Shown here piece by piece: positions 32,168-48,565 of a stretch of DNA of 64,000 bases. The stretch comes from Candidatus Borrarchaeum weybense (GTDB taxonomy: Archaea > Asgardarchaeota > Sifarchaeia > Borrarchaeales > Borrarchaeaceae). The stretch lies in contig JAHQJS010000004.1 of NCBI GenBank assembly GCA_019057385.1, forward strand, positions 598,408 through 662,407, read 5' to 3'. A program made the position numbers and the translations under genes. A model generated the notes under the pieces. The model was given only the letters and a program-made list of their open reading frames with translations, had not been told where the DNA came from and made no database searches. How positions within the stretch are numbered: the first letter of the stretch is position 1; each line of letters opens with the position of its first letter.

Positions 32168-32581
32168 TTACTTTTTCAAGGGTGTAGGCCCTAATGTGCG
32201 TAATTTTTCTGTAAATTCCTCTACAACATTTTTGAACTTCATACCTTCAGAAGCAGAAACCCATTCTAAACGAAGACGTTCTGGAGATATACCCATGAGT
32301 TCTAAAAATTTTTTAGTCTGTTCAACGCGTTCTTTTGCGCGTTCGTTTCCATTTTGATAATGGCAATCACCAATGTGACATCCACCTACCAAAACCCCAT
32401 CTACACCTCGATTGAAAGCGTCAAGAATGAACGACGGTTCTACTCGTCCAGAACACATTACGCGAATAATTCGAATATTTGGTGGATATTGAAATCGTGA
32501 AACTCCAGCTAAATCTGCTCCCGCATAGGAACACCAGTTACACAAAAAGGCTACTATCTGCGGTTCATAGGATTTACTCAT
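32168..32581 (-). CDS. mvhD: MvhD/FlpD [2Fe-2S] subunit, all-Cys form
   Basis: FLCNWCSYAGADLAG, RVMCSGRV, GCHIGDCHY, WVSASEG. Confidence 0.95.
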   Translation of the reverse strand: MSKSYEPQIVAFLCNWCSYAGADLAGVSRFQYPPNIRIIRVMCSGRVEPSFILDAFNRGVDGVLVGGCHIGDCHYQNGNERAKERVEQTKKFLELMGISPERLRLEWVSASEGMKFKNVVEEFTEKLRTLGPTPLKK

Positions 32582-32769: not shown

Positions 32770-35700
32770 TTAAGCCTCTTCGGATAAACAGGCTCTTACC
32801 ATATCCACTATTTGCTCTGTCGTAAAGTGTCTGTGAGATATTGCGTTTACTGGACACGCTGCCACGCAAGTTCCACACCCTTTACATGTTGCTTGGTTAA
32901 CGCGGCTTTTCCTCTCAATTAACTTAATATCTTCAAACTCTCTAACTATTTCGACAGGCTCGATGGCGTTATATGGGCAGATTGAAATACATGTCCCGCA
33001 TCCTATGCATCTATCTTCATCAATAACAGCTGTTGTACCAATCGTTTCTAAAGTTCCTCTGCTCAATAAAATACCTGCCCTTGAGGCCGCACCACTTGCT
33101 TGTGCTATTGCTTCCCCTACACTTTTAGGACCATGTGCAACTCCACATAGAAAGATTCCATCTGTAGCGAAATCAACTGGGCGCAGTTTCACGTGTGCTT
33201 CGAGGAAAAAGCCTCCTTCCTCTTCACTAACAAGTGGGACTTTCAGCTGCTTTGATAATTCCTTTGCATCCTCTTGGGCAATTAAGGGTGTGCTTAAAAC
33301 AATTAGGTCACTGTCTAAACAGAGTTTCGTGTTCGATACCGTATCGAAAACCTCTACATTTACTTTGTCATCCATAACATTTACAGATGGTGGTTTGTCT
33401 TCGGTATACCTTAAGAAAGTGATGTTCTGACCTCGTGCTTTGCGATAATATTCCTCTAGATTTTTCGCGGGCGTAACGATATCTCTGTTGCAGATATAGA
33501 TATTCGCATTTGGTAGTCGCTCACGAAGAAGCATTGCATTTTTTAGTGCCGCTGTACAACAAATTCTACTACAATACGTTCTGCCTTCCTTTTCTCGGGC
33601 ACCTACACATTGAATCGTCACAATGTTTTCTAAGTCGTCAATTTCTTCGTTTTTGAGGCGATTTTCTAGTTCTAACTGTGTGATAATATTACCGCTTTTT
33701 CCAAAAGCAAACATTCCTTCTGGTTCAAAAACCTGACCACCAGTTGCAACAACAATTACGCCGACTGTAATTTCTTTTGTATCAGATTTATTTTCTAAAA
33801 TTTCTACGTTGAAATTGCCTACATATCCTTCAATTGATTTAATCTCAGAATTCAAGAAGGTTTTAATATTAGGTTGTTCTTTTACTGCTTTAACCTTTTT
33901 CTGAATGATATCTTCCGCTAATTCATCTTTTGGCGCTATTTTATATAGGTCCTTAAGTAAACCTCCTAGCTCATTCTCCCGTTCAACAAGATATGTTTGA
34001 AAGCCTCGACTTGCGATATCTAAGGCGGCAGCCATACCGGAAACACCTCCACCGATGACTAACGCCTCTTGTTTGACGTCTATATATCTTACTTCAATTG
34101 GTTCGAAACGTCTTGCTTTTGAGGTGTACATCCGTACAAGGTCTTTTGCTTTCTGTGTCGCTTCGGTAGGTTGCTTCATATGAACCCATGAACACTGATC
34201 TCTGATGTTTACTAGTTCAAAAAGGAATGGATTGAGTCCCGCTTCTTCACACGTCTTCATAAATAATGCTTCATGTGTCCTTGGAGTGCATGATGCCACA
34301 ATTAATCTGTTCAAATCACGTTCCTTTATCATATCTTTCAAAACATTTTGAGCTTCAGATGAGCATGCATATCGGTTTTCAACAGCAACTTCTACGTTAG
34401 GAAGCGATTTTGCATATTCCACCACTTCAGGAACGTCCACCACACCACCAATATTGATACCACAATGACAGACCATAATACCGATCCGTGGTTCTTCATC
34501 TGGTTTTATTTCTCGAACAGGGGCAATACGGTCTTTCTCCTCAAGAACTCCTCTTTCAATACGTCCAAGAATTTTTCCTACCTTGGCAGCAGCACCACTT
34601 GCTTGGGCAACAGTATCAGGGATATCTTTTGGTCCTTGGGCAAGACCTGCGCTAAATATCCCAGGAACGCTTGTTTCATTGATTGCGTCCGCGCTTTTTT
34701 CTTTAATGAATCCATTCTTATCTGTTTCTATGCCAAGAATCTTTGCCAATTCTTGTGTGCCTGCTGATGGAATAAGAGCCGGGCATAATACAGCCATATC
34801 TACTTTTAACTCTTCTACTGCGTCTTTATTAAAATTATAAAGATATAACGTCAACTCATGAGTATCGAGATCTTCTTTGATATTACAAACTCTTCCACGA
34901 TTGTATGTTACCCCATATTCGTCGCGCGCTCTCATGGTATATTCATTAAATCCTTTACCATGTGCCCTTAAATCGATATAACAAATATGCTCTTCCATAT
35001 CAGGTTCATGTTCTTTAGTGATAATAGCCTGCTTTGTAGCATACATACAACACACTGCTGAGCAATATTCCTTTCTTCTTACGTCACGAGAACCGACGCA
35101 TTGAATCCACGCTATTTTTTTAGGCGGCTTTTGATCCGAAGGGCGTAATATATGTCCATGAGTTGGTCCTGAAGCACACATAATTCGTTCGTATTCTAAA
35201 CTTGTGACAACATTTGGATATGTACCATATCCGTATTCTGTCATGTCTGAAGGATCATAGACATCCAAGCCAGTAGCGACAATGATAGCACCTACATTAA
35301 GGTCTAGAATCTTTTCTTTTTGTTCAAAATCTATTGCGCCTTGGGTACATGCCTCTTGACATGGGGGTGTTTCTCCTTTCTTCCCGCATTGTCCTATTTT
35401 AAGATAAAGACATTTATTCTCATCAATGGTTGCGACTTGGGGGACTGCTTGTAAAAATGGGATATATACAGCTCCTCTCTTACCTATACCCACTTCAAAC
35501 TCGCTTGGAATTCTATCTTTAAGTCGACAAACAGCAATGCATTGCACACAGCCAGTGCATTTGCTTTCATCGATGTATCGTGGTTTTTTTCGAACTGTTA
35601 CTGTAAAATTGCCAGCAGCACCAGAAACCTCAGAAACCTCAGAATATGCGTGTAACTTGATATTTGGATGTCGTGCAACTTCTACCATTTTTGGCGCTAG

Positions 35701-35889
35701 TATACAAAGTGCACAATCACCTGTTGGGAATGTCTTGTCTAACTGTGACATTCGTCCACCGATGCTTGGCGTTCTTTCAACTAAATGAACAGTATAACCA
35801 TTATCAGCTAAATCTAAGGAGGCTTGCATTCCAGCAACTCCTCCGCCAATTACTAGCACTTCAGATACTTCAGATGCTTCCATCTTCAT
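32770..35889 (-). CDS. hdrA: Large HdrA-like flavoprotein with two FAD modules, all-Cys
   Basis: Two GGGxxG motifs, PTGDCALCILAPK, CHCGINIG, CSxxCC, C-terminal ferredoxin. Confidence 0.92.
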   Translation of the reverse strand: MKMEASEVSEVLVIGGGVAGMQASLDLADNGYTVHLVERTPSIGGRMSQLDKTFPTGDCALCILAPKMVEVARHPNIKLHAYSEVSEVSGAAGNFTVTVRKKPRYIDESKCTGCVQCIAVCRLKDRIPSEFEVGIGKRGAVYIPFLQAVPQVATIDENKCLYLKIGQCGKKGETPPCQEACTQGAIDFEQKEKILDLNVGAIIVATGLDVYDPSDMTEYGYGTYPNVVTSLEYERIMCASGPTHGHILRPSDQKPPKKIAWIQCVGSRDVRRKEYCSAVCCMYATKQAIITKEHEPDMEEHICYIDLRAHGKGFNEYTMRARDEYGVTYNRGRVCNIKEDLDTHELTLYLYNFNKDAVEELKVDMAVLCPALIPSAGTQELAKILGIETDKNGFIKEKSADAINETSVPGIFSAGLAQGPKDIPDTVAQASGAAAKVGKILGRIERGVLEEKDRIAPVREIKPDEEPRIGIMVCHCGINIGGVVDVPEVVEYAKSLPNVEVAVENRYACSSEAQNVLKDMIKERDLNRLIVASCTPRTHEALFMKTCEEAGLNPFLFELVNIRDQCSWVHMKQPTEATQKAKDLVRMYTSKARRFEPIEVRYIDVKQEALVIGGGVSGMAAALDIASRGFQTYLVERENELGGLLKDLYKIAPKDELAEDIIQKKVKAVKEQPNIKTFLNSEIKSIEGYVGNFNVEILENKSDTKEITVGVIVVATGGQVFEPEGMFAFGKSGNIITQLELENRLKNEEIDDLENIVTIQCVGAREKEGRTYCSRICCTAALKNAMLLRERLPNANIYICNRDIVTPAKNLEEYYRKARGQNITFLRYTEDKPPSVNVMDDKVNVEVFDTVSNTKLCLDSDLIVLSTPLIAQEDAKELSKQLKVPLVSEEEGGFFLEAHVKLRPVDFATDGIFLCGVAHGPKSVGEAIAQASGAASRAGILLSRGTLETIGTTAVIDEDRCIGCGTCISICPYNAIEPVEIVREFEDIKLIERKSRVNQATCKGCGTCVAACPVNAISHRHFTTEQIVDMVRACLSEEA

Positions 35890-36806
35890 TCACCTTGTTC
35901 AATTTTAGATAGAAATGTTTTAATTTTATCAGCAGGAACTCTATTGAATTGGAATCCAAGATCATCGAAAGTGTATCCAAGAGTTAAACCAAGAAGTTGT
36001 GGATAAAATAGTGCAGGGAGATCATACTTTGTCTTCAGTCTCCGTTCAATGTTTAATTGCTGTGTATCGAACATTTGTTCACAGAATGGACATATCATGA
36101 TTGTACAGTCGGCCCCTGCCGCTTTAGCACTGTCTAATTTTTCTTGCGCGAGTTTTACAGCCACATCTTCGTTTATTGCTAAAATCGGCCCACCACAGCA
36201 CTTTAGCTGGTATTCCCAATCGATTGCTTGCGCTCCAGTTATGTCTACTAGATCTTCCAGGATATGCGGTCGCTCAGGATCATCTACTTGCATAGCTTCT
36301 GATGGTTTAAGGCTGTGACATCCATAGAAGACGGCTGCTTTTAGACCATCAAAACGCATTGTCATTTTCTTTTCAATATTCTCAAGCCCATAATCATAAA
36401 GCATTTTAATGTAATGATTGACCTCGATGGTTCCCTTAAATTCCGGCAACTCACTTTCTGTTAAAACAGTATTTACGCGTACGCGTAATTGCTCATCATG
36501 TTTCAAATGATGATTTGCTTCTTTTAAGGCCCCAAAACATCCATTGCATAACGCTACAATATCCAAATTCATCTCTTCAGCGATTACTAAATTTTTAGCA
36601 GCCATTGAAATCCATGTATCGAAATCCACAGACCTTAAGAAAACTGGGCCACAGCAGCCTGCGCCCCTTTCCTGCATGTCCACAAATTCTATTTCTAATG
36701 CTTCTGCGCACTTTCGGGCACTCACATCATAATTATTATATCGTTTTGGAATAGTACATCCAAGGAACAAAGCATATCGATGGTTCTTGCTCATATTAAT
36801 CGGCAC
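35886..36806 (-). CDS. hdrB: Heterodisulfide reductase subunit B
   Basis: LGC, CCG (x2), CNGC, YGCH, CPFC. Confidence 0.92.
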   Translation of the reverse strand: MPINMSKNHRYALFLGCTIPKRYNNYDVSARKCAEALEIEFVDMQERGAGCCGPVFLRSVDFDTWISMAAKNLVIAEEMNLDIVALCNGCFGALKEANHHLKHDEQLRVRVNTVLTESELPEFKGTIEVNHYIKMLYDYGLENIEKKMTMRFDGLKAAVFYGCHSLKPSEAMQVDDPERPHILEDLVDITGAQAIDWEYQLKCCGGPILAINEDVAVKLAQEKLDSAKAAGADCTIMICPFCEQMFDTQQLNIERRLKTKYDLPALFYPQLLGLTLGYTFDDLGFQFNRVPADKIKTFLSKIEQGE

Positions 36807-37329
36807 CCTCTTCCTCGATTAAATCCGTCATTTTAGTTTTTTTGAAGAGTCTTCTAATTCCTTGAACATCCGCTTCATCTAATGTGGGTAGTCCTAAATC
36901 TTCTCTATCCTCATTTTCAAAATCAGATATTTCATCTATCCTACCCATCTCAAAGATATTTTTTATTAAGGTCTTGAAAGCATCAGGCATATCTTTTTCT
37001 CTGGTGGCAATATTTTTGATAGCAAACAACACACTCGAAAGGTTAACCCGTTGTGGGCACCTTTCTGTGCATCCAAAACACGTTGAACATATCCAGATCG
37101 CTTTGCTGTTTAAAACCTCTTCTCTGAAGCCCAATAATGATTTTTGGATTATTTGGTGCGGTAAGATATCAAATGCGTCTTGAACTGGACACGTTGCCGA
37201 ACATGTTCCGCATTGGTAACAATAAAATATCTGCTCTCCGTCAGGGTTTGCAGCAATTTCAAATTTGAAATTTGGGTCAAGTTGAGCGGTTTCAATGCAT
37301 ACCTTTTCAGTTTTTTCTTCATTTTCCAT
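36796..37329 (-). CDS. hdrC: Heterodisulfide reductase subunit C
   Basis: CYQCGTCSATCP and WICSTCFGCTERCP. Confidence 0.92.
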   Translation of the reverse strand: MENEEKTEKVCIETAQLDPNFKFEIAANPDGEQIFYCYQCGTCSATCPVQDAFDILPHQIIQKSLLGFREEVLNSKAIWICSTCFGCTERCPQRVNLSSVLFAIKNIATREKDMPDAFKTLIKNIFEMGRIDEISDFENEDREDLGLPTLDEADVQGIRRLFKKTKMTDLIEEEGAD

Positions 37330-37369: not shown

Positions 37370-38587
37370 TTAAGTCTCGGATAACGTCTCTTTTAGCCCC
37401 ATAGCTTTAGCAACTATGTTTACAACATCGAATACTTTAAGTTGTATCTCTTGCTCTTCTTCATCCTCTCGTTTTTCATTAAGTAGGCAATTAAAGTGGA
37501 TTTGGCATTTCGGACAGGTAGTAACGAGTATTTCTGCCACATTTGCGGCTTCTGTTAATCGATCAGTTCGGATACCTTTAGTAAAATCATTACAACCCAT
37601 AAAAGCAGGGACGCCGCAACATAATGCCCTTTCTTTGTTTCGTTCCATTTCGATAAAACGCACCCCAACGTTTTCCATACTATTAAGAATCGTTCGTGGG
37701 GCATCATAAACTTTCATATACCGCCCTAATCGACAAGGATCATGGTAGGTTACGGTTATTTCGGGAGAAAATGACTGAGTAAATTCAACAGTCCCCTCAT
37801 CTATTTTTTGCGCGATTAATTCAGTTATATGGAGTACTTCCACCTTACCAAGATCAAAATACTTAGGATATTCTTTTTTAAGGGCCATATATCCTTCTGC
37901 GCAAGAAGTAATGACTCTTTTAGCACCACTAGCTTTAATTGTTTCAATATTTTGCTTAGCTAGGCTCTTAAAGACATCAACATCTCCTCGCCACAGTGCA
38001 TCGTGTCCACAACACTTTTCCTGGCGAAGAATTACTGGAGGTTCTTCAAACAAGGCGTCCAAAATTCTAAAAGTATCGTGGGCTATAGATAACGCATTAA
38101 AACCAATATCTTTTTTGAAATAATCATATGCATCAAAAAACGGGAGACATCCTATAAAATACGCCGTTTCCCCAGTCTCAGTGACTTCAACCCCAGGCGG
38201 TACCACAAAGTCTGGTAGATTTCTTTTAAGAGATTCGTTTGCCATCATTTTTTGAGAAAGTGAAAATTCGCCATGCGCTACTTCGCCATGAAGTGCTAAT
38301 TCCTGTACCATTTCAGCCCTAGCATCTTTCACCATTTCTGGAAAATTAATATTCTGAGGGCATTTTTCGTAGCAATAACTGCAGGTGAGACAAGTCCAAA
38401 GATGACCTTCCTTTAGAACTTTTTCCCTATCACCAAGTAGAAGCTCATAGATATAAAGGCTCGGCTGATACGCCTCAAGAAAATATCCTAGCGGACAACA
38501 ACCAGTACAGACACCGCACTGGTAACAACCTTTTACTATTTCTTTCAGGATTTTTTCATCTTCAGATGCCATCTTAGTCGATGTCAT
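37370..38587 (-). CDS. HdrD/GlpC-like Fe-S oxidoreductase (2x4Fe-4S + CCG domains)
   Basis: CYQCGVC, CLTCSYC, CCGH, YHDPCRLGR, CCG, CPKC. Confidence 0.88.
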   Translation of the reverse strand: MTSTKMASEDEKILKEIVKGCYQCGVCTGCCPLGYFLEAYQPSLYIYELLLGDREKVLKEGHLWTCLTCSYCYEKCPQNINFPEMVKDARAEMVQELALHGEVAHGEFSLSQKMMANESLKRNLPDFVVPPGVEVTETGETAYFIGCLPFFDAYDYFKKDIGFNALSIAHDTFRILDALFEEPPVILRQEKCCGHDALWRGDVDVFKSLAKQNIETIKASGAKRVITSCAEGYMALKKEYPKYFDLGKVEVLHITELIAQKIDEGTVEFTQSFSPEITVTYHDPCRLGRYMKVYDAPRTILNSMENVGVRFIEMERNKERALCCGVPAFMGCNDFTKGIRTDRLTEAANVAEILVTTCPKCQIHFNCLLNEKREDEEEQEIQLKVFDVVNIVAKAMGLKETLSET

Positions 38588-38618: not shown

Positions 38619-40130
38619 TCATTTACTTTTCTTCTGAGCCAACTCTTTAATTGAGAAGTAATAGTGTGGGGGTAAACCCGGCGATTTCTGATATTTCTCA
38701 ATCACAGCCTTTGCGTTTCGACTTTTCTTCCGCTTTGACAGTTTCTCAACTAATTCTACATTGATAGGCTTCTCATTAATCTTTAAATAGCCTTCTTTTA
38801 CTGCATTCTCAAAAATTTTCTCGCCTATGCCTGTTCGGACAACGGCAGTGGACCATCCTGCCCCCGCTCCAATCGAGCCAACTGAAATATCTGCCAATTC
38901 GGAAGTTAAATCTACACAATAATGACATGCTTCTCTTGCAAATTCTGCAACTTCAGCAATCGGTAATTCGATCGGGTCACCTTCAATCCTGTGGAGGAAA
39001 AATTTGCCTTTATTGATATCTGTCTTCTTCACATCACTTAGTTGAACTCCGCCCTTCTCTGCGATCTTTTTTACTCCTTCATAAGGGAAGCTTTCCATGC
39101 AAAATAGCCCGAAAATCGCGACTATCTCGCCAAAAGTATCCTTAAAGGTCTCGCCATAGTAACACTGGTATTTTCGCAAGGCTTGAAGCATGCAAGGTGT
39201 TCCAACTACGCATATTTTCTCGCATTCAGATTTTCGTACGGTGTCTAAAATTGATAGATTGGGAGACATTGCGTATTTAGTCCCTGCACATTTGACTAAT
39301 TCTGCAACATTTCTTACAATTCGCGGTTGTGGTTTCCATGGGTCATCTTCAAGTCCTACGACAATTGCTCCATCAATTTCCCCTTTTTCCAATAAGTAAG
39401 CGACTAATGACGTGACGACTCCACCATCTTGTTTTACCGTTTTTATGGTATCATCAGTGCATTGTGCCATTACGCATTTCTTATAACGTCCAATTGGTTC
39501 TTCTTTAAAGTGATCACGATTAATGATGTTGTTTCCTAAGCCTTTAAGCAGTCCTATCGGCAGGAAAGTCCTCGGACAATTTTCAAAGCAAAGTGAGCAG
39601 TGTATACATACGTCTTCATCGAGAATTGGTCCATCATCACTTACTGAAAGTGCATTTACTGGACAAACTGAGACGCATAATCCGCAGAAAGTACATAGGC
39701 GCGTTGCTAAAATGTTTTGTACTGATTGACCTACAGCAACGTCAGTTGGCGGAAGTAGGCTTAATCTAAGTAATTCATCTTCAACGATTTCGGAAATTCT
39801 TGTTCTGAAGACCAGCTCATCTTTGGTAGATATGCTTTCAACTTTTCCCTCCGATTCTAGATGTAAAAGATGTGAATAGACGTCAAATTCTTCTAAGTCC
39901 AATTCGTTTGCCAATCGAGAAATAGAAACTCCGTCTTTAAGGGCTAACTTAGATAAGATTAATTGTCTTCTTAAATCGTCTTCAAACACTTGATCTTCAA
40001 TATAGTGAATCATGTTAATATCAAGTTTGCCCTTTTTTATAATCTCCTCTTCATTCTCTAGAAGAACTTTCGTTCTAAAGTTCTCTGCGGTATCTACAAT
40101 TGCATTCAATTTTTCCTTCAGTTCAACCAA
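38619..40130 (-). CDS. N-terminal winged helix + ferredoxin + F420-binding FrhB-family protein
   Basis: wHTH (VSISRLANELDL..VYSHLLHLESEGKV), 2x CxxCxxC, QDGGVVT, GTKY, VGTPC, GLFCMESF, CHYC, DISVGS. Confidence 0.85.
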   Translation of the reverse strand: MVELKEKLNAIVDTAENFRTKVLLENEEEIIKKGKLDINMIHYIEDQVFEDDLRRQLILSKLALKDGVSISRLANELDLEEFDVYSHLLHLESEGKVESISTKDELVFRTRISEIVEDELLRLSLLPPTDVAVGQSVQNILATRLCTFCGLCVSVCPVNALSVSDDGPILDEDVCIHCSLCFENCPRTFLPIGLLKGLGNNIINRDHFKEEPIGRYKKCVMAQCTDDTIKTVKQDGGVVTSLVAYLLEKGEIDGAIVVGLEDDPWKPQPRIVRNVAELVKCAGTKYAMSPNLSILDTVRKSECEKICVVGTPCMLQALRKYQCYYGETFKDTFGEIVAIFGLFCMESFPYEGVKKIAEKGGVQLSDVKKTDINKGKFFLHRIEGDPIELPIAEVAEFAREACHYCVDLTSELADISVGSIGAGAGWSTAVVRTGIGEKIFENAVKEGYLKINEKPINVELVEKLSKRKKSRNAKAVIEKYQKSPGLPPHYYFSIKELAQKKSK

Positions 40131-40159
40131 ATTCTAAACGCCCCTTTGCATTCTAAGGG

Positions 40160-40203
40160 TTGTCTTCTTGAAACCACAATGTTTACGTTTCAAGAGTCAT
40201 TCA
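40160..40203 (-). promoter_or_regulatory. Eukaryote-like SECIS element of mvhD(Sec), overlapping its stop codon
   Basis: AUGA-c-UCUUGAAAC-guAAAcauugug-GUUUCAAGA-a-GA: tandem GA core, 9-bp helix, AAA in the apical loop. Confidence 0.75.
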
Positions 40204-40607
40204 GTTTTTAATGGATTTGGTCCAAGCTTTTCGACTTTCTTGAGGGTATCCTCTACAGCTGCCACAAATCTACCTGCTTCTGCAGCAGACAGGAAGTACA
40301 TATTGACTCGGTTTTCGCCGAGACCATGTCGTTTGAGGATTCGTTTTACAAAGTTGACGTTTCTATCTGCCTTCAAATTTCCGTCAGGAAATTCACATTC
40401 ACCCTTGTGACATCCAACTACCATAACACCATCAGCGCCCTGCCGAATGGCGTGAAGAAGATGTCCTGCGTTGATTCGTCCAGTGCAACGAATCCTTACA
40501 ATATTTATGTTTGGTGGGTACTTCATGCGACATGTGCCAGCTAAATCGGCTGCAGGGTAACCTCATTTGTCGCAAGCAAGAGCAACTATGTTATAATTGT
40601 CATCCAT
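40197..40607 (-). CDS. mvhD: Selenocysteine-containing MvhD (136 aa, Sec15)
   Basis: ATG at 40607 after GGAG: MDDNYNIVALACDK-U-GYPAADLAG. TGA at 40563-40565 aligns with the second Cys of CNWC in the paralog; length matches the 137-aa paralog. Confidence 0.92.
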
Positions 40608-40679
40608 AGGCTCGATCTCCACTCATGAAATTATATTATGATTTTATTTTTGATGTGTGCACCCTTCGGTTGCAACCTA

Positions 40680-40727
40680 ACTGCTTCTATGAAGGCATAA
40701 CTTTTTTCCATTCATGATCCTTGCAGT
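40680..40727 (-). promoter_or_regulatory. Candidate SECIS element of hdrA(Sec), GGA-core variant
   Basis: ACUGC-aa-GGA-ucAUGAAuGG-AAAAAAguuaug-CCUUCAU-a-GA-a-GCAGU, starting about 10 nt after the stop. Confidence 0.6.
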
Positions 40728-40736
40728 ATATGGATG

Positions 40737-42689
40737 CTATGTTTTTACTTTCAAAGTTGGTTTTAATGTGCCTGAGATCTCGCGAAGAAGTTGTTCGTCC
40801 CTGTGATATCTAACTGAAAGTGCTTTTGTTGGACAGACTGAAACACACAATCCGCAACCCTTACACGCAATTTCTGATACTTGAGCGACTTCATCTATAA
40901 CTTCAACTGCGTTAAATGGACATATGCGTTCGCATGTCCCACATGAAATACACAAAGACTCATTGACAATTGGAACCATAAGTTCCAACATTATTTTACC
41001 CTGTACAAATGCAGCAGCTAATGCAGCAACACCGTTTGCACCAGCTACACTGTAAGGAATATTCTTAGGACCGTGTGCTCCTCCGGCAATGTATATACCA
41101 GGAGTCTTTGTGTCCTGTGGATTGAGACACTCATGGATTGGCTTAAGAAAGCCGCTTGGGCCACGATCAAGTCTTAAGACTTCTGCGATTTTCAGCGTTC
41201 CTTCTCCTGGGGCAATTCCTGCGGAAAGCACCAACATATCCACGTCATCGCGGATTAGTTCTCTCGTCAAAGTATTTTCTACTCGAATCTTCAGGTTCTT
41301 TGTTTCTTTGTTTTCTCGCACTTCAGCAATCTTGCCCCTGACGAATTTAATGCCTGCATCCCTCACACGGGCATAATATTCTTCGCAGGCTTTATCTGGG
41401 GTGCGGATATCAATGTAATAGATAGTTATATCAGTGTCAGGATATTCTTGATGAATTAACTGAGCGTTCTTCATCGCTACCATACAGCAAACCTGACTGC
41501 AATGCGGGTTTGTTTTTAGATCTCTAGATCCAACACATTGAAGCATCCCTATTTTTTTAGGTCGCTTATTATCGGAAATACGTAATAAGTGACCACCTGT
41601 AGGTCCTGTTGGATTCAACAGTCGTTCTAGATCTGATTGTGTAACAACGTTCTCATAGATTCCGTAGCCATAATCGTTGTTTTCCAATGCGTCATAAGGG
41701 GCAAATCCAGTTGCCACGATGATTGCACCGACATCGATTTTCTTCGTTGATGGTTGTTGTTCTAAGTCTATTGATTCAGATAAGCAAGCCTTTTGGCATG
41801 CGCCACAATCGATACAGTCATCTTTGTTAATCACCGCTATTTTCGGGACTGCTTGTGCAAAGAGAATGTAGATCGCATTTCGAGTTCCCAACCCATTGTT
41901 GAATTCATTAGGAACTGTTATTGGACATTTTTCCAGACACGCTTCGCATCCTGTACAGGTTTCTGTGTTGACATAGCGGGCTTTTTGCAGTAATTCAACC
42001 TTGAATTCACCAGGTCTACCGCTTACGCTTTGAACTTCTGTATAGGTTAAGATCTCTATATTTGGATTTCTGGCGACTTTAACCATTTTTGGAGCTAGTA
42101 TTCAGATACTACAGTCATCGGTTGGAAAGACTCTATCAAATTTCGCCATAGAGCCCCCGATAGATGGCGAGCTTTCCACAAGAAATACTTTGATTCCCTG
42201 TTTTGCCAAATTCAAAGCTGATGTCATTCCAGTAATTCCTGCACCAACGACCATAACTGCTTCTACTGTTTCCAACTCAAGTACTGGGATATCTTCTAAT
42301 AATTCCGCGCGTGCCACACCAGCTGCAACTAAACGTTTGGCTTTTTCAGTTGCGGCTTCTTTATCTGTATGTACGAAAGAATCATGTTCTCTGAGATTTA
42401 CCATTTGGAAATAGTATGGCGACAATCCTGCTTCTTTTAGCAACGCGCGATATGTTCCCTCGTGTATCATGGGTGTACATGCTGCAACAACAATGCGGTT
42501 CAAATCGTATTCCTTTATAGCTTCTTTGATCTCTTGTTGTCCTGCATCGCTACAACTAAACACGCTTGTGCTCGTGTATACGACATTAGGTAAAGTTTTC
42601 GCAAACTCGGCGACTTCTTCTACGTCTACCACTGAACCAATGTTCACGCCTCACGCACAAATAAAGGCTCCGATGCGTACATTTTTCAT
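40737..42689 (-). CDS. hdrA: Selenoprotein HdrA (650 aa) with two Sec (U13, U196)
   Basis: ATG at 42689 after GGAGG: MKNVRIGAFICA-U-GVNIG (TGA 42651-42653) and PTDDCSI-U-ILAPKM (TGA 42102-42104). Both align with Cys in the in-window paralog (CHCGINIG, CALCILAPK); one continuous frame joins the ORF-track fragments. Confidence 0.93.
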
Positions 42690-43057: not shown

Positions 43058-44473
43058 ATGGCAAACGAGCGAATGATTGAGTATTTACAATCTCGTATTG
43101 AAGGAATAGGTTTTAGAGACTTACAGGGCTTTGTTGTCGATAAAGACGTCTGTTGCTTCTGCGGAACCTGTGCATCACTTTGCCCCAGGATTGGTTTGGA
43201 AGAAAAAAAGCCAAAGCTTCAGGAATACGACCCTACCTGTTCTATGTGTTTCAGATATTGTGCAAGAACTTATTTTCCAGAAGATGAAGTTGAAAAGGAA
43301 TTTCTTGGTGGTCAACGTCAGAACTTTCTTTTAGGCTATTATCAGAAAGCAACCGCTGCGAAAAGTACCGATAATGCAGTAGTAAAGGTAGCTCAAAATG
43401 GAGGAGTAGTTTCCACACTATTGATTCGTGCTTTAGAGACAGGTTTAATTGATGGAGCACTTGTTACAGGGAAAGCTGGCAATTGGGTGCCGAACCCCTA
43501 CGTAGCGAGAACTCCAGAAGAGATATTAGCCGCTGCTGGTTCTAGATATACGATGGCGCCAAGTATGCTTCCATATTCTGAGGCAATATATGAATATGAA
43601 CTTGAAAAACTTGCTTTTGTTGGTATGCCGTGTCAAATCCAAGCAGCAAGAAAACTTCAACTATGGCCACCCCTTTCTGATGCACTTGGAAAAATCACAT
43701 TGATTATTGGGTTATTCTGTTCATCAAACTTCACGATGGACCTACTCAAGAATACAGTATATCAACAAATGGGTGTTTCACTGAGCGATGTAAAGAAGTT
43801 TGATATTGCACGTGGTAAATTCTTTGTTTACCTAAATGATGGATCGGTAAAAGATCTCCCAATAAAAGAGACTAAAGTAAACAATTGGGCATCTTGTCAG
43901 TATTGTAAGGACTATACTGCTGAATTTTCTGATATTTCAGTTGGCTCAGTAGGTGCGCCAGCCGATGATTGGAATACTGTCTTAGTAAGGTCAGATGTTG
44001 GTGCAAAACTGTTTGATGATGCGGTAGCAGCTGGAAAAATAACTGTTGCAGATACACTTGATCTCTCTAGGGTAGAAAAAGAATCCCTTAGGAAGAAATC
44101 GCAATTAGCGAAGATGGATGAGCGAGTGTATTCCGCCGTACAACTTTTGAATGTGTCAGACGTTGAAGCAAAGACCTATGCAACTCTCGTGTCTTTAGGA
44201 TACGCAGATATAACGATGTTAGCTAAAGTCATGAAGACAGAAGAAGCAGATGTTCGTAACTCACTTAATACATTACAGCAACGAAAATGGATATCTGCAA
44301 CTGATTCTAAATACACTCCCGTCAATCCGGCGAATGTTATCAAGGCAGAAATAGACAAATTCGAGGCAAACATCAAAAAAATCAAATCTGATGCATTGGT
44401 AGATCTCCAAGCGCTTTATGTGCAGAACAATCTCATGCATGTGCGCTACAAGGAATTTATGGACTTAATCTAG
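43058..44473 (+). CDS. FrhB-family F420-binding protein fused to a C-terminal TrmB-type HTH
   Basis: QNGGVV, GSRY, VGMPC, GLFC, CQYC, DISVGS; C-terminal LNVSDVEAKTYATLVSLG..LNTLQQRKWI..YTPVNP. Confidence 0.82.
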   Translation: MANERMIEYLQSRIEGIGFRDLQGFVVDKDVCCFCGTCASLCPRIGLEEKKPKLQEYDPTCSMCFRYCARTYFPEDEVEKEFLGGQRQNFLLGYYQKATAAKSTDNAVVKVAQNGGVVSTLLIRALETGLIDGALVTGKAGNWVPNPYVARTPEEILAAAGSRYTMAPSMLPYSEAIYEYELEKLAFVGMPCQIQAARKLQLWPPLSDALGKITLIIGLFCSSNFTMDLLKNTVYQQMGVSLSDVKKFDIARGKFFVYLNDGSVKDLPIKETKVNNWASCQYCKDYTAEFSDISVGSVGAPADDWNTVLVRSDVGAKLFDDAVAAGKITVADTLDLSRVEKESLRKKSQLAKMDERVYSAVQLLNVSDVEAKTYATLVSLGYADITMLAKVMKTEEADVRNSLNTLQQRKWISATDSKYTPVNPANVIKAEIDKFEANIKKIKSDALVDLQALYVQNNLMHVRYKEFMDLI

Positions 44474-44729: not shown

Positions 44730-45695
44730 ATGTTGTTAAAGATGCATGAATTTGGTGATAAAAACCTGGGAAATCTTCAAGCAGAAGTCATCTATAATAG
44801 CCTTTGTACTGGATGCGGGGCATGTGCTGCTTTCTGCCACAAGTACATTAGCATGGTAGATGGATTTCCAACTGCAATTTCAAGATGCTTAACTCCCTGT
44901 GGGCTCTGTTATAGTGTTTGCCCACGGACATTTGTATCGCTTAAAGCGCTAGATCAATTTACTTTTGGCGAAAATCGTGAAGATCAAGCGCTGGGCTATT
45001 ATAAAACTATAGTTCAAGCTAAAACAAAAGGAAACGCTAAAGCAAGTGTATTAACGTCCTTGCTAAAGGCGGCGCTAGATCTTAAACTGATCGATTCAGC
45101 AGTGCTAGCTAAAGGTATCGATCCGAAAGATAAGTGGAAAGCAGAACCATTTATCGTTACAAATAAAAAAGAGATTGAGAAAGGTGCGGAAGGTAAACTG
45201 AACGCAAGTCCTCAGATAACAGGATTGGCTGAAGCTATTGCTATGGGTAAGAATAATATTGCACTAGTTGGTGTGCCCTGTCAGATGATTGCCTTACGAA
45301 AAGTTCAGTCAAACAAGAACTATGAAGTTTGCCAAGACAAGATTGTGTTTGCCCTTGCTGAATTCTGTGTACGGGCTCGTCATGATGGATGTGCAAGCTG
45401 CTTGGATATGACTGCTGAATTTTCAGATATTTCTGTAGATCCTACTGCCAAAGAGGGTTGGAATACCGTGATAATTCGCTCTGAGAAAGGTTTATCTGTT
45501 TTTAAACAAGCCGTAGAGAAGGGTTATCTCGAAACACAAGAGATAACCGATGAAGTCATGAATAAGCTCAAAACAGCGGCAGAACGAAAATTAAAGAAAA
45601 ACCTGCAGGCTATTCTTAAAGACGTAGATTATGTTAAATTGTCATACCTATTAGCGGATGCTACCGAACTCTCTACACTACTGAAACTGATTTAA
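44730..45695 (+). CDS. Divergent, internally shortened FrhB-family protein
   Basis: CTGCGAC, CPRT, VGVPCQ, EFC joined almost directly to CASCLD, DISV; QxGG motif lost. Confidence 0.75.
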   Translation: MLLKMHEFGDKNLGNLQAEVIYNSLCTGCGACAAFCHKYISMVDGFPTAISRCLTPCGLCYSVCPRTFVSLKALDQFTFGENREDQALGYYKTIVQAKTKGNAKASVLTSLLKAALDLKLIDSAVLAKGIDPKDKWKAEPFIVTNKKEIEKGAEGKLNASPQITGLAEAIAMGKNNIALVGVPCQMIALRKVQSNKNYEVCQDKIVFALAEFCVRARHDGCASCLDMTAEFSDISVDPTAKEGWNTVIIRSEKGLSVFKQAVEKGYLETQEITDEVMNKLKTAAERKLKKNLQAILKDVDYVKLSYLLADATELSTLLKLI

Positions 45696-45989: not shown

Positions 45990-47378
45990 ATGATTGATGA
46001 TGAACTAAAAGAACGTATTAAATCGATTGTTGGAGAGAAGAATTTTACCGACAATACCATTGATTTACTTTCATACAGCCAAGATGGCTCAGAAGCGGAA
46101 GGTACGGCTGATGCGATAGCTTGGGTAACCACGACAGAACAAGTATCAGAACTTATGAAATTAGCTAATGAAAAACGATTTATTGTGGTTCCAAGAGGTG
46201 CTGCAACGGGACTATCTGGTGGCGCAGTAGCTTCACAAGGTCTCATAATGGACTTCTCAAGGATGAATCGAATTCTGGAGATTGATACGGAAAATTTAAC
46301 CGCAACTGTTGAGCCAGGAGTTGTTTTGGCTGATTTAAATAATGAATTGGCGAAGCGAGGAACTGGCTTATTTTTCCCACCAATGCCTGCTTCCGATTCT
46401 GTTGCACAAATGGGAGGTTCCATATCAGAGAATGCCGGAGGAGTTCGTGCAGTGAAATATGGCGTAATGAGTGACTGGGTGCTAGGGCTAGAGATGGTCC
46501 TACCCACAGGAGAAGTAATTCAGGAAGGTGGAAAAACACGAAAAAATGTATCAGGATACAATCTGATCGGCATGATCTCTGGATCAGAGGGAACATTGGG
46601 TGTGATCACGAAAGCTACAGTCGGTTTAACTCCAATTCCAGAAACTCAACTATCAGCTCTCGCCTATTTTAATACTACTGAGAACGCAGGCAAATTTATC
46701 TTTCGATTATTCAAATCAGGATTAAACCCATCTGCTGGAGAAATATTAGATGCCAATACATTGCAATCCGTGTCAAATTACACTGGGATGACTTTTCCAG
46801 AATGTGGAGCGATGATACTTGTGGAGATAGATGGAGACAAAGAGGATGTACAACGCAGACTGAAGGGTCTGGAAGAACTTTTTAAGGAATTCAAGGACGC
46901 AGGTTATCTACTCGAATATAAACTAGCGTGGGATCCAGTTGAAAATTTTGAGCTCTGGCAAGCCAGAAAATCAGCTTTGCCGTCTATGACGCAGATAAAA
47001 CCTACTGTAATCATCGAAGACACAACAGTTCCTCTTGATAAAATTCCTGTACTTCTTAAGAGTATGGAACAGTTAGCTAAAAAATATAACCTCTTGATCC
47101 CATGTTACGGTCATATAGGCGACGGTAACATACACCCAAACTTCCTTTGCGATCCTAGAGACCCTGACGAGTTCGCAAGGGCTCATGAAGCGATTAAAGA
47201 AATGGGAGCTACTGTCCTTGGGTTAGGAGGTACTGTAACTGGTGAACACGGAGTCGGCACAGAAAAAAAGATGTTCATGTTAGCTGAACATGGACAAAAT
47301 AAAATAAACTTATGGGAAAGGATCAAACAGGCCTTTGATCCAAACAGAATCTTAAATCCAGGCAAAATATTCGATTAA
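45990..47378 (+). CDS. FAD-linked 2-hydroxyacid oxidoreductase (GlcD/D-lactate dehydrogenase family)
   Basis: PRGAATGLSGG, ENAGG..VKYG, GSEGTLG, GHIGDGNIH, GEHGVG, DP..ILNPGK. Confidence 0.9.
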   Translation: MIDDELKERIKSIVGEKNFTDNTIDLLSYSQDGSEAEGTADAIAWVTTTEQVSELMKLANEKRFIVVPRGAATGLSGGAVASQGLIMDFSRMNRILEIDTENLTATVEPGVVLADLNNELAKRGTGLFFPPMPASDSVAQMGGSISENAGGVRAVKYGVMSDWVLGLEMVLPTGEVIQEGGKTRKNVSGYNLIGMISGSEGTLGVITKATVGLTPIPETQLSALAYFNTTENAGKFIFRLFKSGLNPSAGEILDANTLQSVSNYTGMTFPECGAMILVEIDGDKEDVQRRLKGLEELFKEFKDAGYLLEYKLAWDPVENFELWQARKSALPSMTQIKPTVIIEDTTVPLDKIPVLLKSMEQLAKKYNLLIPCYGHIGDGNIHPNFLCDPRDPDEFARAHEAIKEMGATVLGLGGTVTGEHGVGTEKKMFMLAEHGQNKINLWERIKQAFDPNRILNPGKIFD

Positions 47379-47392
47379 ATAGGTGATTTTAA

Positions 47393-48565
47393 ATGGGAAA
47401 ACTTGAATTAGAGAAAAAATATGAAGATCAAGTCCTCAAATGCAGCCGCTGTGGCTTTTGTAGAACAATCTGCCCCACATTTGAAGCCAAAGACTTTTTG
47501 GAGTCTTATGGTGCTCGCGGTAGAATGATACTGCTTAAAGCCGTAGACGAAGGTAAAATTCAACTCAATCAGATTCAGTCCGATCAATCTTTGGTTGATA
47601 GAATCTTCACATGCACATTATGTGGAGCTTGTATGGAGACGTGTCCTTCAAAAGTTGATTATATCGCAACAATGGAGGCTGCAAGAGCTGGGTTGGTCAA
47701 ACTTGGATTAGCTCCTCCTGATTTTGACGAATTTGGTAAGATGACTTTAGAGAAAGGAAATGTGCTGGGCCAGGACAACGCACGACGAATGAAATGGGCT
47801 TCAAAACTTGACAATATCAAAGTGAATGAGCCGGCAGAAACTCTTTACTTTGTTGGCTGCAATGTTATGCGACCTCGTGTGAGACCAATGGCTACGGCCG
47901 CTGGTAAAGTCCTTCAAGACGCTAATGTCGATTTTGCAGTCATGGGGGAAGACGAATGGTGCTGCGGGCTGGTCTTCATTAACACAGGCCACTTAGACGT
48001 CGCAAAAGAATTTGCAAAGCATAACATTGAACTGATTGAGAAGATTAACCCAAAACGCATTGTAACAATTTGCCCGGGATGTGCACAAGCCATTCAACAC
48101 TACGAGCATTTAGTTGGATGGAATCCAGGTGATATTCAGATAATTCATGCAGTGGAATATATTGCAGAGCTCCTCGATCAGGGCAAATTTACATTCACGA
48201 AAGAATTCAATGGTGGCAGTAAAGTAGCATACCATGATCCTTGTGAACTTGGCAGGCAAATGGGTGTTTTTGACGCACCTAGAAAGATTCTTAATGCGAT
48301 TCCAGGCTTAGAATGGGTCGAATTAGAGAATAACAAAGAACTTTCACACTGTTGTGGCGGCGGAAGTGGGTTACAAGGTATTGATACTGAGTTAGCGAGA
48401 GAAGTTGCGAACTATCGATTAAAAGAAGTTCAAGATGCAGGTGCTGACGTGCTGGTTACAGCTTGTCCCACGTGTCGCAGCAATTTCTTAGACACCATCA
48501 AACAGAATAATCTAGCCATCAAAGTGATGGATATTCACGAAATACTAGCGCAAGCCCTTGAATGA
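47393..48565 (+). CDS. GlcF/HdrD-like Fe-S CCG oxidoreductase
   Basis: CSRCGFC, CTLCGAC, WCCG, YHDPC, CCGGG, CPTC. Confidence 0.88.
   Translation: MGKLELEKKYEDQVLKCSRCGFCRTICPTFEAKDFLESYGARGRMILLKAVDEGKIQLNQIQSDQSLVDRIFTCTLCGACMETCPSKVDYIATMEAARAGLVKLGLAPPDFDEFGKMTLEKGNVLGQDNARRMKWASKLDNIKVNEPAETLYFVGCNVMRPRVRPMATAAGKVLQDANVDFAVMGEDEWCCGLVFINTGHLDVAKEFAKHNIELIEKINPKRIVTICPGCAQAIQHYEHLVGWNPGDIQIIHAVEYIAELLDQGKFTFTKEFNGGSKVAYHDPCELGRQMGVFDAPRKILNAIPGLEWVELENNKELSHCCGGGSGLQGIDTELAREVANYRLKEVQDAGADVLVTACPTCRSNFLDTIKQNNLAIKVMDIHEILAQALE

Follow-up and report, generated by a model that had tools for sequence, protein, structure and literature searches.

The window, the whole stretch of 64,000 nucleotides of Candidatus Borrarchaeum weybense DNA that was analysed, harbors on its minus strand a tandem of hdrA and mvhD with three in-frame TGA codons, followed by two genes that form the operon context. 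At lower coordinates lie two paralogs, to which the pair was compared. The features are as follows.

40737..42689, minus strand: hdrA, encoding a homolog of heterodisulfide reductase subunit A (650 aa with two Sec, translated with TGA as U; TAG stop at 40739-40737)
42651..42653, minus strand: Sec13 UGA of hdrA in the N-terminal CxU motif (FICAUGVNIG), at the second Cys of the CxC in solved HdrA
42102..42104, minus strand: Sec196 UGA of hdrA at the canonical HdrA Sec site (DDCSIU-ILAPK), column X in PDB 9sfi_A
40681..40725, minus strand: non-canonical SECIS-like hairpin (from fold, covariance model R1 and position in relatives) in the 129-nt spacer between hdrA stop and mvhD start
40197..40607, minus strand: mvhD, vhuD/frhD family (136 aa with one Sec, from translation and Pfam; TGA stop at 40199-40197)
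40563..40565, minus strand: Sec15 UGA of mvhD (ACDKUGYPAAD), the first of two known VhuD Sec positions
40159..40204, minus strand: canonical Asgard SECIS, eukaryote-like, type I (from covariance model R1 and fold)
40139..40161, minus strand: short second hairpin (CCCUU..AAGGG), a few nucleotides after the SECIS (from fold)
38619..40130, minus strand: frhB/fdhB-like Fe-S flavoprotein gene (Pfam FrhB_FdhB_N/C), 66 nt after mvhD
37370..38587, minus strand: hdrD-like gene with two CCG domains and a 4Fe-4S dicluster (Pfam CCG, Fer4)
32770-35889: fused HdrA paralog with Cys at the HdrA Sec columns
32168-32581: MvhD paralog with Cys at the MvhD Sec column

Both hdrA and mvhD start with an ATG preceded by a GGAGG/GGAG motif. 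By Pfam, HdrA consists of an N-terminal Fe-S domain, an FAD/TrxR-like domain with the Sec at DCxxU-ILAPK and two ferredoxin (Fer4) domains, and it aligns over residues 2-643 with the solved methanogen HdrA 9sfi_A (5.5e-215). In this structure the U13 column is occupied by Cys and the U196 column by a non-standard residue X, presumably Sec; Sec196 corresponds to Cys197/Sec197 of methanogen HdrA (PMC9012536, PMC13518236). MvhD is a FlpD domain (8e-45, Pfam) with U15 in an N-terminal CxxU motif and Cys at the second site, column 66. The product of the hdrD-like gene is the probable disulfide-reducing partner. All three Sec columns are occupied by Cys in the paralogs of the same genome that carry the domain, including the two in the window, and two further hdrA-mvhD pairs of the genome contain TGA in these columns; among the 14 own-genome paralogs that cover the MvhD U15 column, 13 have Cys and one has TGA. 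A preliminary description of the locus had placed the three TGAs at Cys positions of paralogs, in genes with proper starts and ribosome-binding sites, and had recognized the CxxU before ILAPK as the known methanococcal Sec site, and on these points it agrees with our analysis.

The same description had assigned a eukaryote-type 3' SECIS to each of the two genes. Hairpins indeed follow both stops, but only the one behind mvhD has a canonical core. It was scored with a covariance model (R1) built from the SECIS elements of 34 relatives, nine of them spacer elements, from which the window's genus was excluded. The element after mvhD reached 33.9 bits (E 1.7e-5) and was the sole match in the window below E 0.5, and its minimum free energy of -10.1 kcal/mol lies below the -5 kcal/mol threshold used in the literature. 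From 5' to 3' it is composed of AUGA (40200-40197), C, a 9-bp stem (40195-40187 with 40174-40166) around a 12-nt loop (GUAAACAUUGUG), and A, GA (40164-40163) and C; its AUGA includes the UGA stop of mvhD. Covariation supports the stem in the training set of the model, where it is 94% paired and none of 500 shuffles was as good, and none of the 34 training sequences deviates from the U of AUGA. Rfam SECIS families, including SECIS_1, gave no match up to E = 10 between 40050 and 40800, in agreement with the reported failure of standard SECIS tools on Loki genes (Mariotti et al., PMC4989117).

As in the lokiSECIS, AUGA, a 9-bp stem, an A-rich loop and GA are found just after the second gene, whereas the loop has 12 nt and begins with GUAAAC instead of 11 nt beginning with AAAAA, and one additional unpaired nucleotide separates core and stem on each side (PMC4989117). 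The element fits the Asgard type I eSECIS-like elements as defined by Huang, Xiao & Zhang 2024 (core GA_[G/A]A, upper stem of 7-15 bp, loop of 8-20 nt), and its loop start is the G[U/G]AAA variant that they give for hdrA/frhD of Sifarchaeia/Borrarchaeales (PMC11227280). With eukaryotic SECIS elements (Rfam SECIS_1 and relatives) it shares the AUGA...GA core with a predicted kink-turn, the A-rich apical loop, the 3' location and, as predicted here, the ability to act from afar once a minimum spacing is exceeded; unlike in these, the upper stem is much shorter and helix I is missing. Published searches found no SBP2 in Asgard archaea.

The hairpin in the hdrA-mvhD spacer differs from this pattern. 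Its core consists of AGGA (40721-40718) on the 5' side and AA (40686-40685) on the 3' side, its 9-nt arms (40717-40709 and 40695-40687) form seven of nine pairs around a 13-nt A-rich loop, and it scored 5.1 bits on R1, with a minimum free energy of -3.7 kcal/mol against the same -5 kcal/mol threshold. In genus relatives, seven or eight of the nine pairs form (-4.9 to -7.1 kcal/mol) and across the window and these relatives the loops of 11-13 nt start with GAAAAA; in the relative L172 the stem is a clean 9 bp and the loop is 11 nt long. The metagenome scan with a spacer 17-mer, which returned 45 contigs, yielded only three relatives (L163, L172 and L189). An AUGA string in the window's spacer was considered as the core and rejected, as it is itself paired as part of the stem and is replaced by AUGG in four of the five other genus-level contigs and by UUGA in L172; no SECIS in AUGA register was found by a pattern scanner in the spacers of the window, L036 and L037.

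Spacers of 110-207 nt occur in 15 of 63 Asgard pairs, the window's included. Among the 13 long-spacer orthologs of neighbouring clades (Jord, Frey, Hel, G011/G021/G031/G040), a canonical AUGA/GUGA spacer SECIS was found by scan in 12 and by eye in the thirteenth (L069). The window's hairpin occupies the place that the canonical spacer SECIS takes in orthologs of Jord-, Frey- and Helarchaeal lineages, and the clades nearest to the window's HdrA possess such an element. In contrast, the main text of Huang et al. 2024 describes hdrA-frhD intergenic regions as always very short, with almost all pairs sharing one SECIS (PMC11227280); outside the window's genus, nearly all of our long-spacer pairs have a canonical second SECIS.

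These orthologs argue for a division of labor in which the spacer hairpin would recode the hdrA UGAs, 1.4 and 1.9 kb upstream of it, and the downstream element would serve mvhD only, because two elements per pair are a real arrangement in the neighbouring clades. We hold this division to be possible but doubtful. In its favor, the hairpin has the position and geometry of the relatives' spacer SECIS and a loop similar to the one in the downstream SECIS; five distinct genus-level sequences all have AGGA and AA; two stem substitutions within the genus keep or improve pairing (C.A to C-G); and the 3' AA is a published core variant. A GGGA-type core, moreover, works in SECIS elements of Toxoplasma. 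Against it stand the 5.1 bits compared with 33.9 on a model whose training set did contain spacer elements, the AGGA in place of a core whose U was invariant in training, and the two stem mismatches and weak folding in the window. The hairpin has also changed at several times the rate of the downstream SECIS (about 20% versus about 3% divergence between the window and L163). Behind other TGA-containing ORFs of the genome, AGGA-core hairpins occurred at background level (23 strict cases versus 14-42 for control cores), and these counts thus lend the AGGA core no independent support. The claim that each gene has its own SECIS is not supported in the form in which it was made.

That the spacer hairpin is still functional in the window's genus appears to be the less probable case, and we lean slightly towards the view that it is decaying or auxiliary and not the chief signal for hdrA. 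Rather unlikely is the fuller version, in which the genus would belong with the Jord-, Frey- and Helarchaeal pairs to a two-SECIS subfamily (one element per gene, spacer of 110-207 nt) and the AGGA..AA element of hdrA would be working here. If true, this would be the first archaeal SECIS to lack the U of AUGA, which is invariant elsewhere, and nature would thereby offer a test of the demands that the archaeal SECIS reader makes on the kink-turn core. The spacer also contains an AT-rich, TATA-like stretch before mvhD, from which separate transcripts of hdrA and mvhD may arise.

To what extent the TGAs are kept was examined in an ortholog survey. U13 is encoded by TGA in 91 of 93 and U196 in all 93 Sec-type Asgard HdrA genes, and column 71 is TGA in three Asgard HdrA genes. 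For mvhD genes paired with a Sec-type hdrA, U15 is TGA in 63/63 and column 66, where the window's MvhD has Cys, in 54/63. The codons are kept across many Asgard lineages, in orthologs from 94% to 44% identity. The hdrA stop is never TGA in the 63 Sec pairs, as expected if the downstream SECIS reads through UGAs (rule: PMC4989117), and mvhD ends with TGA in nine of the 63.

Default ORF calling splits hdrA into pieces of 181 and 449 aa and shortens mvhD to 109 aa, as would be seen if the TGAs were real stops or errors, that is, if pseudogenes, split genes or a misassembly were at hand. This is effectively refuted. Dozens of orthologs share the three TGA columns in frames that are otherwise intact, with conserved flanking residues. 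In other studies, independent sediment metagenomes yielded contigs that span all three sites, and none of them differs there among the differences listed, which speaks against the sequencing errors of which the preliminary description had warned. The disruptions are all TGA at Cys columns and never TAA, TAG or a frameshift, and the genome has both a SECIS and the Sec machinery. The sole contig from an RNA library, 259 nt long, covers the Sec196 site; it could be DNA and is too little to claim transcription, and contig depth is unfit for ranking expression.

The complete Sec-decoding machinery, which had been proposed as a check, was recovered from the genome. SepSecS (490 bits) and SelB (286 bits) matched above their cut-offs. 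PSTK, directly upstream of and adjoining selB, gave a full-length match of 186 bits, below the NCBIfam curated cut-off of 290 bits, and SelD (250 bits) contains one in-frame TGA and hence is a Sec-containing SelD. The tRNA gene was located as follows.

C6:464916-465039, minus strand: tRNA-Sec with UCA anticodon, 9/4 acceptor/T stems and a long variable arm

This gene was found solely by BLAST with the anticodon arm of a relative's tRNA-Sec, and ARAGORN calls it tRNA-SeC once a 32-nt T-loop intron is removed. ARAGORN on the raw DNA of the genome, with intron mode on or off, detected no tRNA-Sec, and neither did Rfam RF01852 over the whole genome, whose best match (39 bits) was an ordinary tRNA. 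Two hand-written pattern scans (9/4 and 8/5) likewise found none because of the T-loop intron in the gene. A T-loop intron in tRNA-Sec has been published for Lokiarchaeota (PMC4989117). An Rfam scan of the loci around the Sec-machinery genes returned nothing. A genome-wide reassignment of TGA (e.g. to Trp or Gly) without any need for SECIS-dependent recoding accounts for nothing beyond the open frames and is the most improbable reading of all, given that mvhD itself ends at TGA, as do nine of 63 mvhD in relatives, that TGA occurs in frame at no other places than Cys columns of known selenoprotein families, and that the UCA anticodon sits on tRNA-Sec and not on a suppressor tRNA-Trp or tRNA-Gly.

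Taken together, the window very probably contains an Asgard hdrA-mvhD selenoprotein pair as described by Mariotti et al. 2016, with UGAs decoded via the SECIS after mvhD. The three UGAs would be translated as selenocysteine by machinery of the archaeal/eukaryote type, comprising the intron-bearing tRNA-Sec, PSTK, SepSecS, SelB/EFSec and the Sec-containing SelD, and decoding would be directed by the eukaryote-like, kink-turn-type SECIS right after mvhD. The two genes are likely transcribed polycistronically. On the same transcript, the UGAs that precede the SECIS by 0.36, 1.9 and 2.45 kb would be recoded, and the UGA stop of mvhD, which lies inside AUGA, would terminate translation because it is too close to the SECIS. 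The downstream element is thus predicted to serve hdrA too. The spacer hairpin probably derives from a second SECIS dedicated to hdrA, which orthologs of Jord-, Frey- and Helarchaeal lineages retain in canonical form and which in the window's genus would now be reduced to an AGGA..AA core on a weak stem.

Mariotti et al. 2016 described multi-Sec HdrA, the hdrA-vhuD tandem and a SECIS that acts across some 2 kb of a polycistronic mRNA, and proposed that, as an hdrA SECIS degenerated, its function passed to the vhuD SECIS (PMC4989117). Multi-Sec HdrA, the tandem and a SECIS shared from a distance are covered by Huang et al. 2024 as well (PMC11227280). The Lokiarchaeota pairs resemble the window's pair in that a multi-Sec HdrA always retains the canonical site near residue 200, vhuD/mvhD lies directly downstream on the same strand, the hdrA stop is UAG or UAA and a UGA stop can sit in AUGA; the T-loop intron of tRNA-Sec and recoding of UGAs up to about 2 kb away are further common traits (PMC4989117). 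They differ in their 'invariably very short' spacer, as opposed to 129 nt with a second, weakened SECIS-like hairpin, and in a VhuD with two Sec, where the window's MvhD has one (PMC4989117). In Methanococcales/Methanopyrus, HdrA contains one Sec and VhuD two (Wilting et al. 1997, as cited in PMC4989117). Sec196 and MvhD Sec15 are the same sites, and the proteins likewise belong to the FAD-based electron-bifurcating HdrA family with MvhD as electron entry. The methanogens have a euryarchaeal SECIS (GAA_A bulge) and Cys at the N-terminal CxC, neither of which is found in the Asgard pair; the Asgard host is no methanogen, and its partners here are the FrhB-like and HdrD-like proteins.

The window's pair is thus the Asgard selenoprotein arrangement published since 2016, and the preliminary view of a cryptic, novel operon is not sustained: Mariotti et al. 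2016 had already reported the N-terminal Sec, multi-Sec HdrA and the hdrA-vhuD tandem (PMC4989117), and U13 is nearly universal in our survey. Only the long-spacer subfamily with two SECIS elements is of modest novelty. There, one-SECIS and two-SECIS states stand side by side and the window's genus looks intermediate, which bears on the takeover idea of Mariotti et al. Otherwise the locus is chiefly an annotation matter. Gene callers split HdrA in two and shorten MvhD, and as a consequence electron-bifurcating complexes of Asgard archaea are mis-scored in metabolic reconstructions.

Concerning the role of the Sec residues, Sec13 and Sec196 of HdrA probably share one site of action. In methanogen HdrA, Cys197 extends over the dimer interface to the [4Fe-4S] cluster in the N-terminal domain of the other subunit (PMC9012536), and Sec196 is predicted to do likewise; residues 11, 13 and 71 are the invariant Cys positions of this domain. 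BLASTP of the HdrA N-domain against MvhD gave nothing usable, and only profile-profile comparison aligned the two: hhalign placed U13 on U15 and C71 on C66 with modest confidence (probability 30%, E 5e-4). From this alignment we infer that Sec15 takes the homologous ligand position at the cluster of MvhD. The Asgard Sec sites 13, 71 and 196 of HdrA and 15 and 66 of MvhD would then all be homologous ligand positions of a single cluster type, which suggests that selenium is concentrated at one electron-transfer node.

Two minor structures were noted around the SECIS elements. A three-way junction closing the downstream SECIS in the minimum free energy fold (CUGAAUG with CGUUUAG) was discarded, as changes in its 3' arm are uncompensated in L037 and L163. 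The short second hairpin at 40139-40161 has a counterpart after the spacer hairpin (about 40657-40680), and a likewise placed hairpin follows the SECIS of relatives.

Two predicted selenoprotein genes, hdrA and mvhD, lie on the window's minus strand, and translations and domain matches showed that all coordinates and motifs assigned to this pair in the preliminary description were right. The pair, the genes downstream of it and the tRNA-Sec gene of the same genome are as follows:

42689 (ATG) to 40739-40737 (TAG), minus strand: hdrA; GGAGG before the ATG, two TGAs read through, 650 aa
40607 (ATG) to 40199-40197 (stop TGA), minus strand: mvhD; 129-nt spacer from hdrA, 136 aa, FlpD/MvhD match at 8e-45
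40130..38619, minus strand: FrhB-like gene downstream of mvhD
38587..37370, minus strand: HdrD-like CCG gene after the FrhB-like gene
C6:464916-465039, minus strand: tRNA-Sec gene, outside the window; located by BLAST, then by ARAGORN on the intron-removed sequence

The hdrA product contains the FAD/thioredoxin-reductase-like and ferredoxin domains of HdrA (Pfam) and is matched over nearly its full length by solved methanogen HdrA chains (9sfi_A, 5.5e-215). Its two TGAs correspond to U13 (FICAUGVNIG) and U196 (DDCSIUILAPK), and the single in-frame TGA of mvhD to U15 (ACDKUGY). In the alignment with 9sfi_A, U13 falls on the second Cys of CxC and U196 on an X, a non-standard residue that we take to be selenocysteine. 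The surrounding region is rich in electron-transfer modules: three FrhB/FdhB-like genes flank the pair (43058-44473 and 44730-45695, plus strand; 38619-40130, minus strand), the first with a TrmB-type winged-helix domain at its C-terminus, and a D-lactate-dehydrogenase-like FAD oxidase (45990-47378) and a second HdrD-like CCG protein (47393-48565) are encoded farther along.

The genome (4.18 Mb, 37% GC, 8 contigs; the window spans C4:598408-662407) encodes about 15 HdrA and 15 MvhD paralogs. Where the domain is present, Cys is found at HdrA columns 11, 13, 71, 193 and 196 and at MvhD columns 12, 15, 41, 66 and 71, save in two more pairs, both on contig C6, where TGA stands precisely at those Cys columns. 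The in-window paralogs used for comparison in the preliminary description were identified as a fused 1039-aa HdrA (32770-35889) and an MvhD (32168-32581). Orthologs were then surveyed in 40 relatives' genomes and 80 public contigs; they range from 94% to 44% identity, with MAG labels of Promethearchaeota, Jord-, Frey-, Hel-, Hermod-, Hod- and Thorarchaeota, which marks the host as an Asgard archaeon. All 93 HdrA orthologs with in-frame stops have TGA at column 196, and less common extra sites occur at 71, 255, 292, 401/402 and 615. The N-terminal CxU had been set apart as a site not seen in methanogens; we agree, yet Asgard HdrA normally has it (TGA at column 13 in 91/93). Among the mvhD genes paired with a Sec-type hdrA, column 15 is TGA in 63/63 and column 66 in 54/63. 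Sediment metagenome contigs from other studies cover all three sites of the window, with no change there among the differences listed. Because the TGAs are conserved in orthologs and recur in these independent contigs, sequencing error and pseudogenisation were excluded for practical purposes as their source. One contig labelled 'Candidatus Nanopelagicaceae bacterium' (DATKTW010000119.1) encodes a two-Sec Asgard-type HdrA nested among Promethearchaeota in the tree and is probably mis-binned. In L163, a relative's copy of the pair from a metagenome, the 3' part of mvhD is interrupted ~120 nt before the stop by 32 nt with an internal inverted repeat (TCAGAC...GTCTGA), possibly a mini-insertion, possibly an artefact of assembly.

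The preliminary description had left the Sec machinery to be searched for, and all of SepSecS, PSTK, SelB, SelD and tRNA-Sec proved to be present. SepSecS (490 bits), SelB (286 bits) and SelD (250 bits, with an in-frame TGA of its own) were detected, as was a full-length PSTK directly upstream of SelB, its 186 bits lying below the curated cut-off. On genomic DNA tRNA-Sec was not found by Rfam RF01852, ARAGORN or two custom pattern scans; BLAST with a relative's tRNA-Sec matched the anticodon arm at C6:465008. The anticodon is UCA, the acceptor and T stems measure 9 and 4 bp, the variable arm is long and the gene encodes its CCA end; its T loop is split by a 32-nt intron, upon removal of which ARAGORN calls tRNA-SeC. 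The Lokiarchaeota tRNA-Sec has a T-loop intron too, of 31 nt (Mariotti et al., 2016, PMC4989117). Since RF01852 and ARAGORN miss the intron-bearing gene on genomic DNA, automated annotation that reports no tRNA-Sec in such MAGs is untrustworthy. ARAGORN also calls a tRNA-Pyl with a CUA anticodon at C7:143743-143811 (minus strand); among Asgard archaea, complete Pyl recoding was described for Sifarchaeia only (Sun et al., 2021). Taken jointly, this tRNA and the GUAAA SECIS loop are a hint of a Sif-/Borrarchaeales-like host. The contamination estimate of the genome is 7%, and contig C1 (179 kb, 39% GC, 800 N), with a tight intron-free tRNA gene cluster unlike the other contigs, may not be part of the archaeon. 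Contig C4, which holds the window and selD, is not in doubt as the archaeon's own.

To characterize the SECIS elements, a covariance model was built from regions after hdrA and mvhD at orthologous loci (34 SECIS candidates, the window's genus left out, 9-bp stem fixed). In this training set 94% of the stem is paired, both sides change at 9/9 pairs, and neither 500 shuffles (0/500) nor any slid register came close to the real alignment. Across the 64-kb window a single element was detected below E 0.5, at 40159-40204 (minus strand; 33.9 bits, E 1.7e-5). It reads AUGA-C-UCUUGAAAC-GUAAACAUUGUG-GUUUCAAGA-A-GA-C, the stop codon of mvhD being the UGA within AUGA, folds at -10.1 kcal/mol and is ~3% diverged within the genus, versus ~14% for coding sequence. 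Its form is that of published Asgard SECIS (AUGA, 9-bp stem, A-rich loop, GA; PMC4989117), and it shares the G[U/G]AAA loop start described as a variant for hdrA/frhD of Sifarchaeia/Borrarchaeales (Huang et al., 2024, PMC11227280). Rfam SECIS families gave no match to the SECIS region of the pair; standard SECIS tools had likewise failed in Mariotti et al. (2016, PMC4989117). A second short GC-rich hairpin follows each of the two elements of the pair after 2-5 nt (40139-40161 and about 40657-40680, minus strand). It occurs in many lineages (L038-L041, L066-L070, L075, L096) with differing stems and loops such as GUAAGCG and UAAGCAA, and may correspond to the 'eaSECIS-like' structures that Huang et al. 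(PMC11227280) named downstream of eSECIS-like ones.

It had been proposed that hdrA, too, is followed by its own eukaryote-type SECIS. This reading of the spacer hairpin at 40681-40725 needs correction, as its score is low, its core non-canonical and its fold weak. It scored 5.1 bits when the model was run on the spacer alone and was absent from the hits over the window at E up to 10. In the register of the model (AGGA-UCAUGAAUG-GAAAAAAGUUAUG-CCUUCAUAG-AA) the geometry is correct, with G for the otherwise invariant U of AUGA, AA as the 3' dinucleotide and 2/9 stem pairs mismatched. The hairpin folds at -3.7 kcal/mol and falls short of the -5 kcal/mol threshold used by both Mariotti et al. (2016) and Huang et al. 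(2024). A conspicuous AUGA string was rejected as the core: it sits within the stem and, of the five other contigs at genus level, reads AUGG in four and UUGA in one.

The hairpin is nevertheless more than a chance structure. In the survey, hdrA-mvhD spacers were bimodal in length (10-53 nt in 48 pairs, 110-207 nt in 15), and the 15 long-spacer pairs form two adjacent subclades of the HdrA tree, in which a Helarchaeota-like pair and the window's genus are sister groups (SH-aLRT 90). Outside the genus, a pattern scan detected a canonical spacer SECIS in 12/13 long-spacer loci (AUGA; GUGA in one); that of L069 was missed by the scan and is canonical by eye. These elements follow a common TCC-W-TAT-R-C motif and precede a common second hairpin. 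Since the window's hairpin occupies the same position as the canonical SECIS of the 13 loci, it is, on comparative grounds, orthologous by position to a true SECIS specific to hdrA. With three metagenome contigs added, AGGA and AA were unchanged in five distinct genus-level sequences, and the stem changes included one C.A to C-G and one A-U to G.U. In one relative, L172, the mismatched U is lost, giving a 9-bp stem with an 11-nt loop (-7.1 kcal/mol). Two results count against function: between the window and L163 the hairpin is ~20% diverged and the downstream SECIS ~3%, and AGGA-core hairpins were not enriched behind other TGA-containing genes of the genome. We conclude that the spacer hairpin appears to be a weakened descendant of a second SECIS; that it still directs Sec insertion is possible but rather doubtful.

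In the published Asgard model, hdrA and vhuD are translated off one mRNA, one SECIS serves up to 6 UGAs over about 2 kb, and distant upstream UGAs are recoded, not a UGA within or adjoining the element (PMC4989117). The window fits this model, the Sec UGAs being 363, 1902 and 2451 nt upstream of the AUGA core that holds the mvhD stop. The downstream SECIS would recode these three UGAs on a shared mRNA, and the mvhD UGA inside AUGA would terminate. The hdrA stop is UAG, and 0/63 hdrA genes of Sec pairs end in UGA. No oligo-T terminator was seen in the hdrA-mvhD spacer; because an AT-rich TATA-like stretch precedes mvhD, separate transcripts are conceivable.

Cys197 of one HdrA was described as ligating the Fe-S cluster of the partner HdrA's N-terminal domain (Chadwick et al., PMC9012536), and a Cys-Sec197 selenylsulfide relay linking this cluster with FAD was proposed in a cryo-EM study of 2026 (PMC13518236). 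Residues 11, 13 and 71 are invariant Cys of the N-terminal domain in the genome's own paralogs, and profile-profile alignment placed HdrA C11/U13/C46/C71 on MvhD C12/U15/C41/C66 (E 5e-4, probability 30%). Taken with the role of Cys197, this suggests that residues at the Asgard Sec sites (HdrA 13, 71 and 196; MvhD 15 and 66) serve as ligands to homologous clusters.

Loki HdrA with its five possible Sec positions, the HdrA-VhuD tandem with a single shared SECIS, the AUGA overlapping a UGA stop and the intron-bearing tRNA-Sec were described by Mariotti et al. (2016, PMC4989117), and extended to Jord- and Sifarchaeia (Sun et al., 2021) and to 227 Asgard genomes (Huang et al., 2024, PMC11227280). 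The main texts of Mariotti et al. and Huang et al. call the stretch between the two genes 'invariably' or 'always' very short and give 'almost all' pairs one common SECIS; neither the long-spacer subfamily with a second SECIS nor the AGGA..AA derivative of the window's genus appears in these main texts.

The two further Sec-type pairs lie at C6:183971-186445 and C6:368681-372200 (plus strand). One has U13 and U196 in HdrA, U15 and U66 in MvhD, a spacer of roughly 5 nt and a SECIS of the form AUGA..AA. In the other, mvhD is fused in one frame to a rearranged HdrA with TGAs at the HdrA 196 and MvhD 66 columns, and the SECIS has an extra apical mini-stem (type II-like). The genes of two small paralogs (roughly 110-130 aa; motif WLNVS-x-x-U-S-x-T) have one in-frame TGA each, with a strong SECIS after each gene, at C6:502370-502413 and C4:174435-174477 (minus strand; 31.0 and 29.9 bits); the core of one SECIS is GUGA. 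The proteins match Pfam Fe-S_biosyn (HesB/IscA-like) weakly (E 0.008), and no HesB-like family is among the seven that Huang et al. (2024, PMC11227280) list in their main text for Asgard selenoproteins. The domain order of the fused 1039-aa HdrA (minus strand) is rearranged: its first half keeps the Cys193/Cys196 pair without the N-terminal domain, and its second half has the N-terminal Cys triad without Cys193/196, the pattern of complementary halves read as a built-in heterodimer by Chadwick et al. (2022, PMC9012536). HdrC-like (36796-37329) and HdrB-like CCG (35886-36806) genes lie just upstream of it, and the MvhD that follows it (minus strand) is all-Cys.
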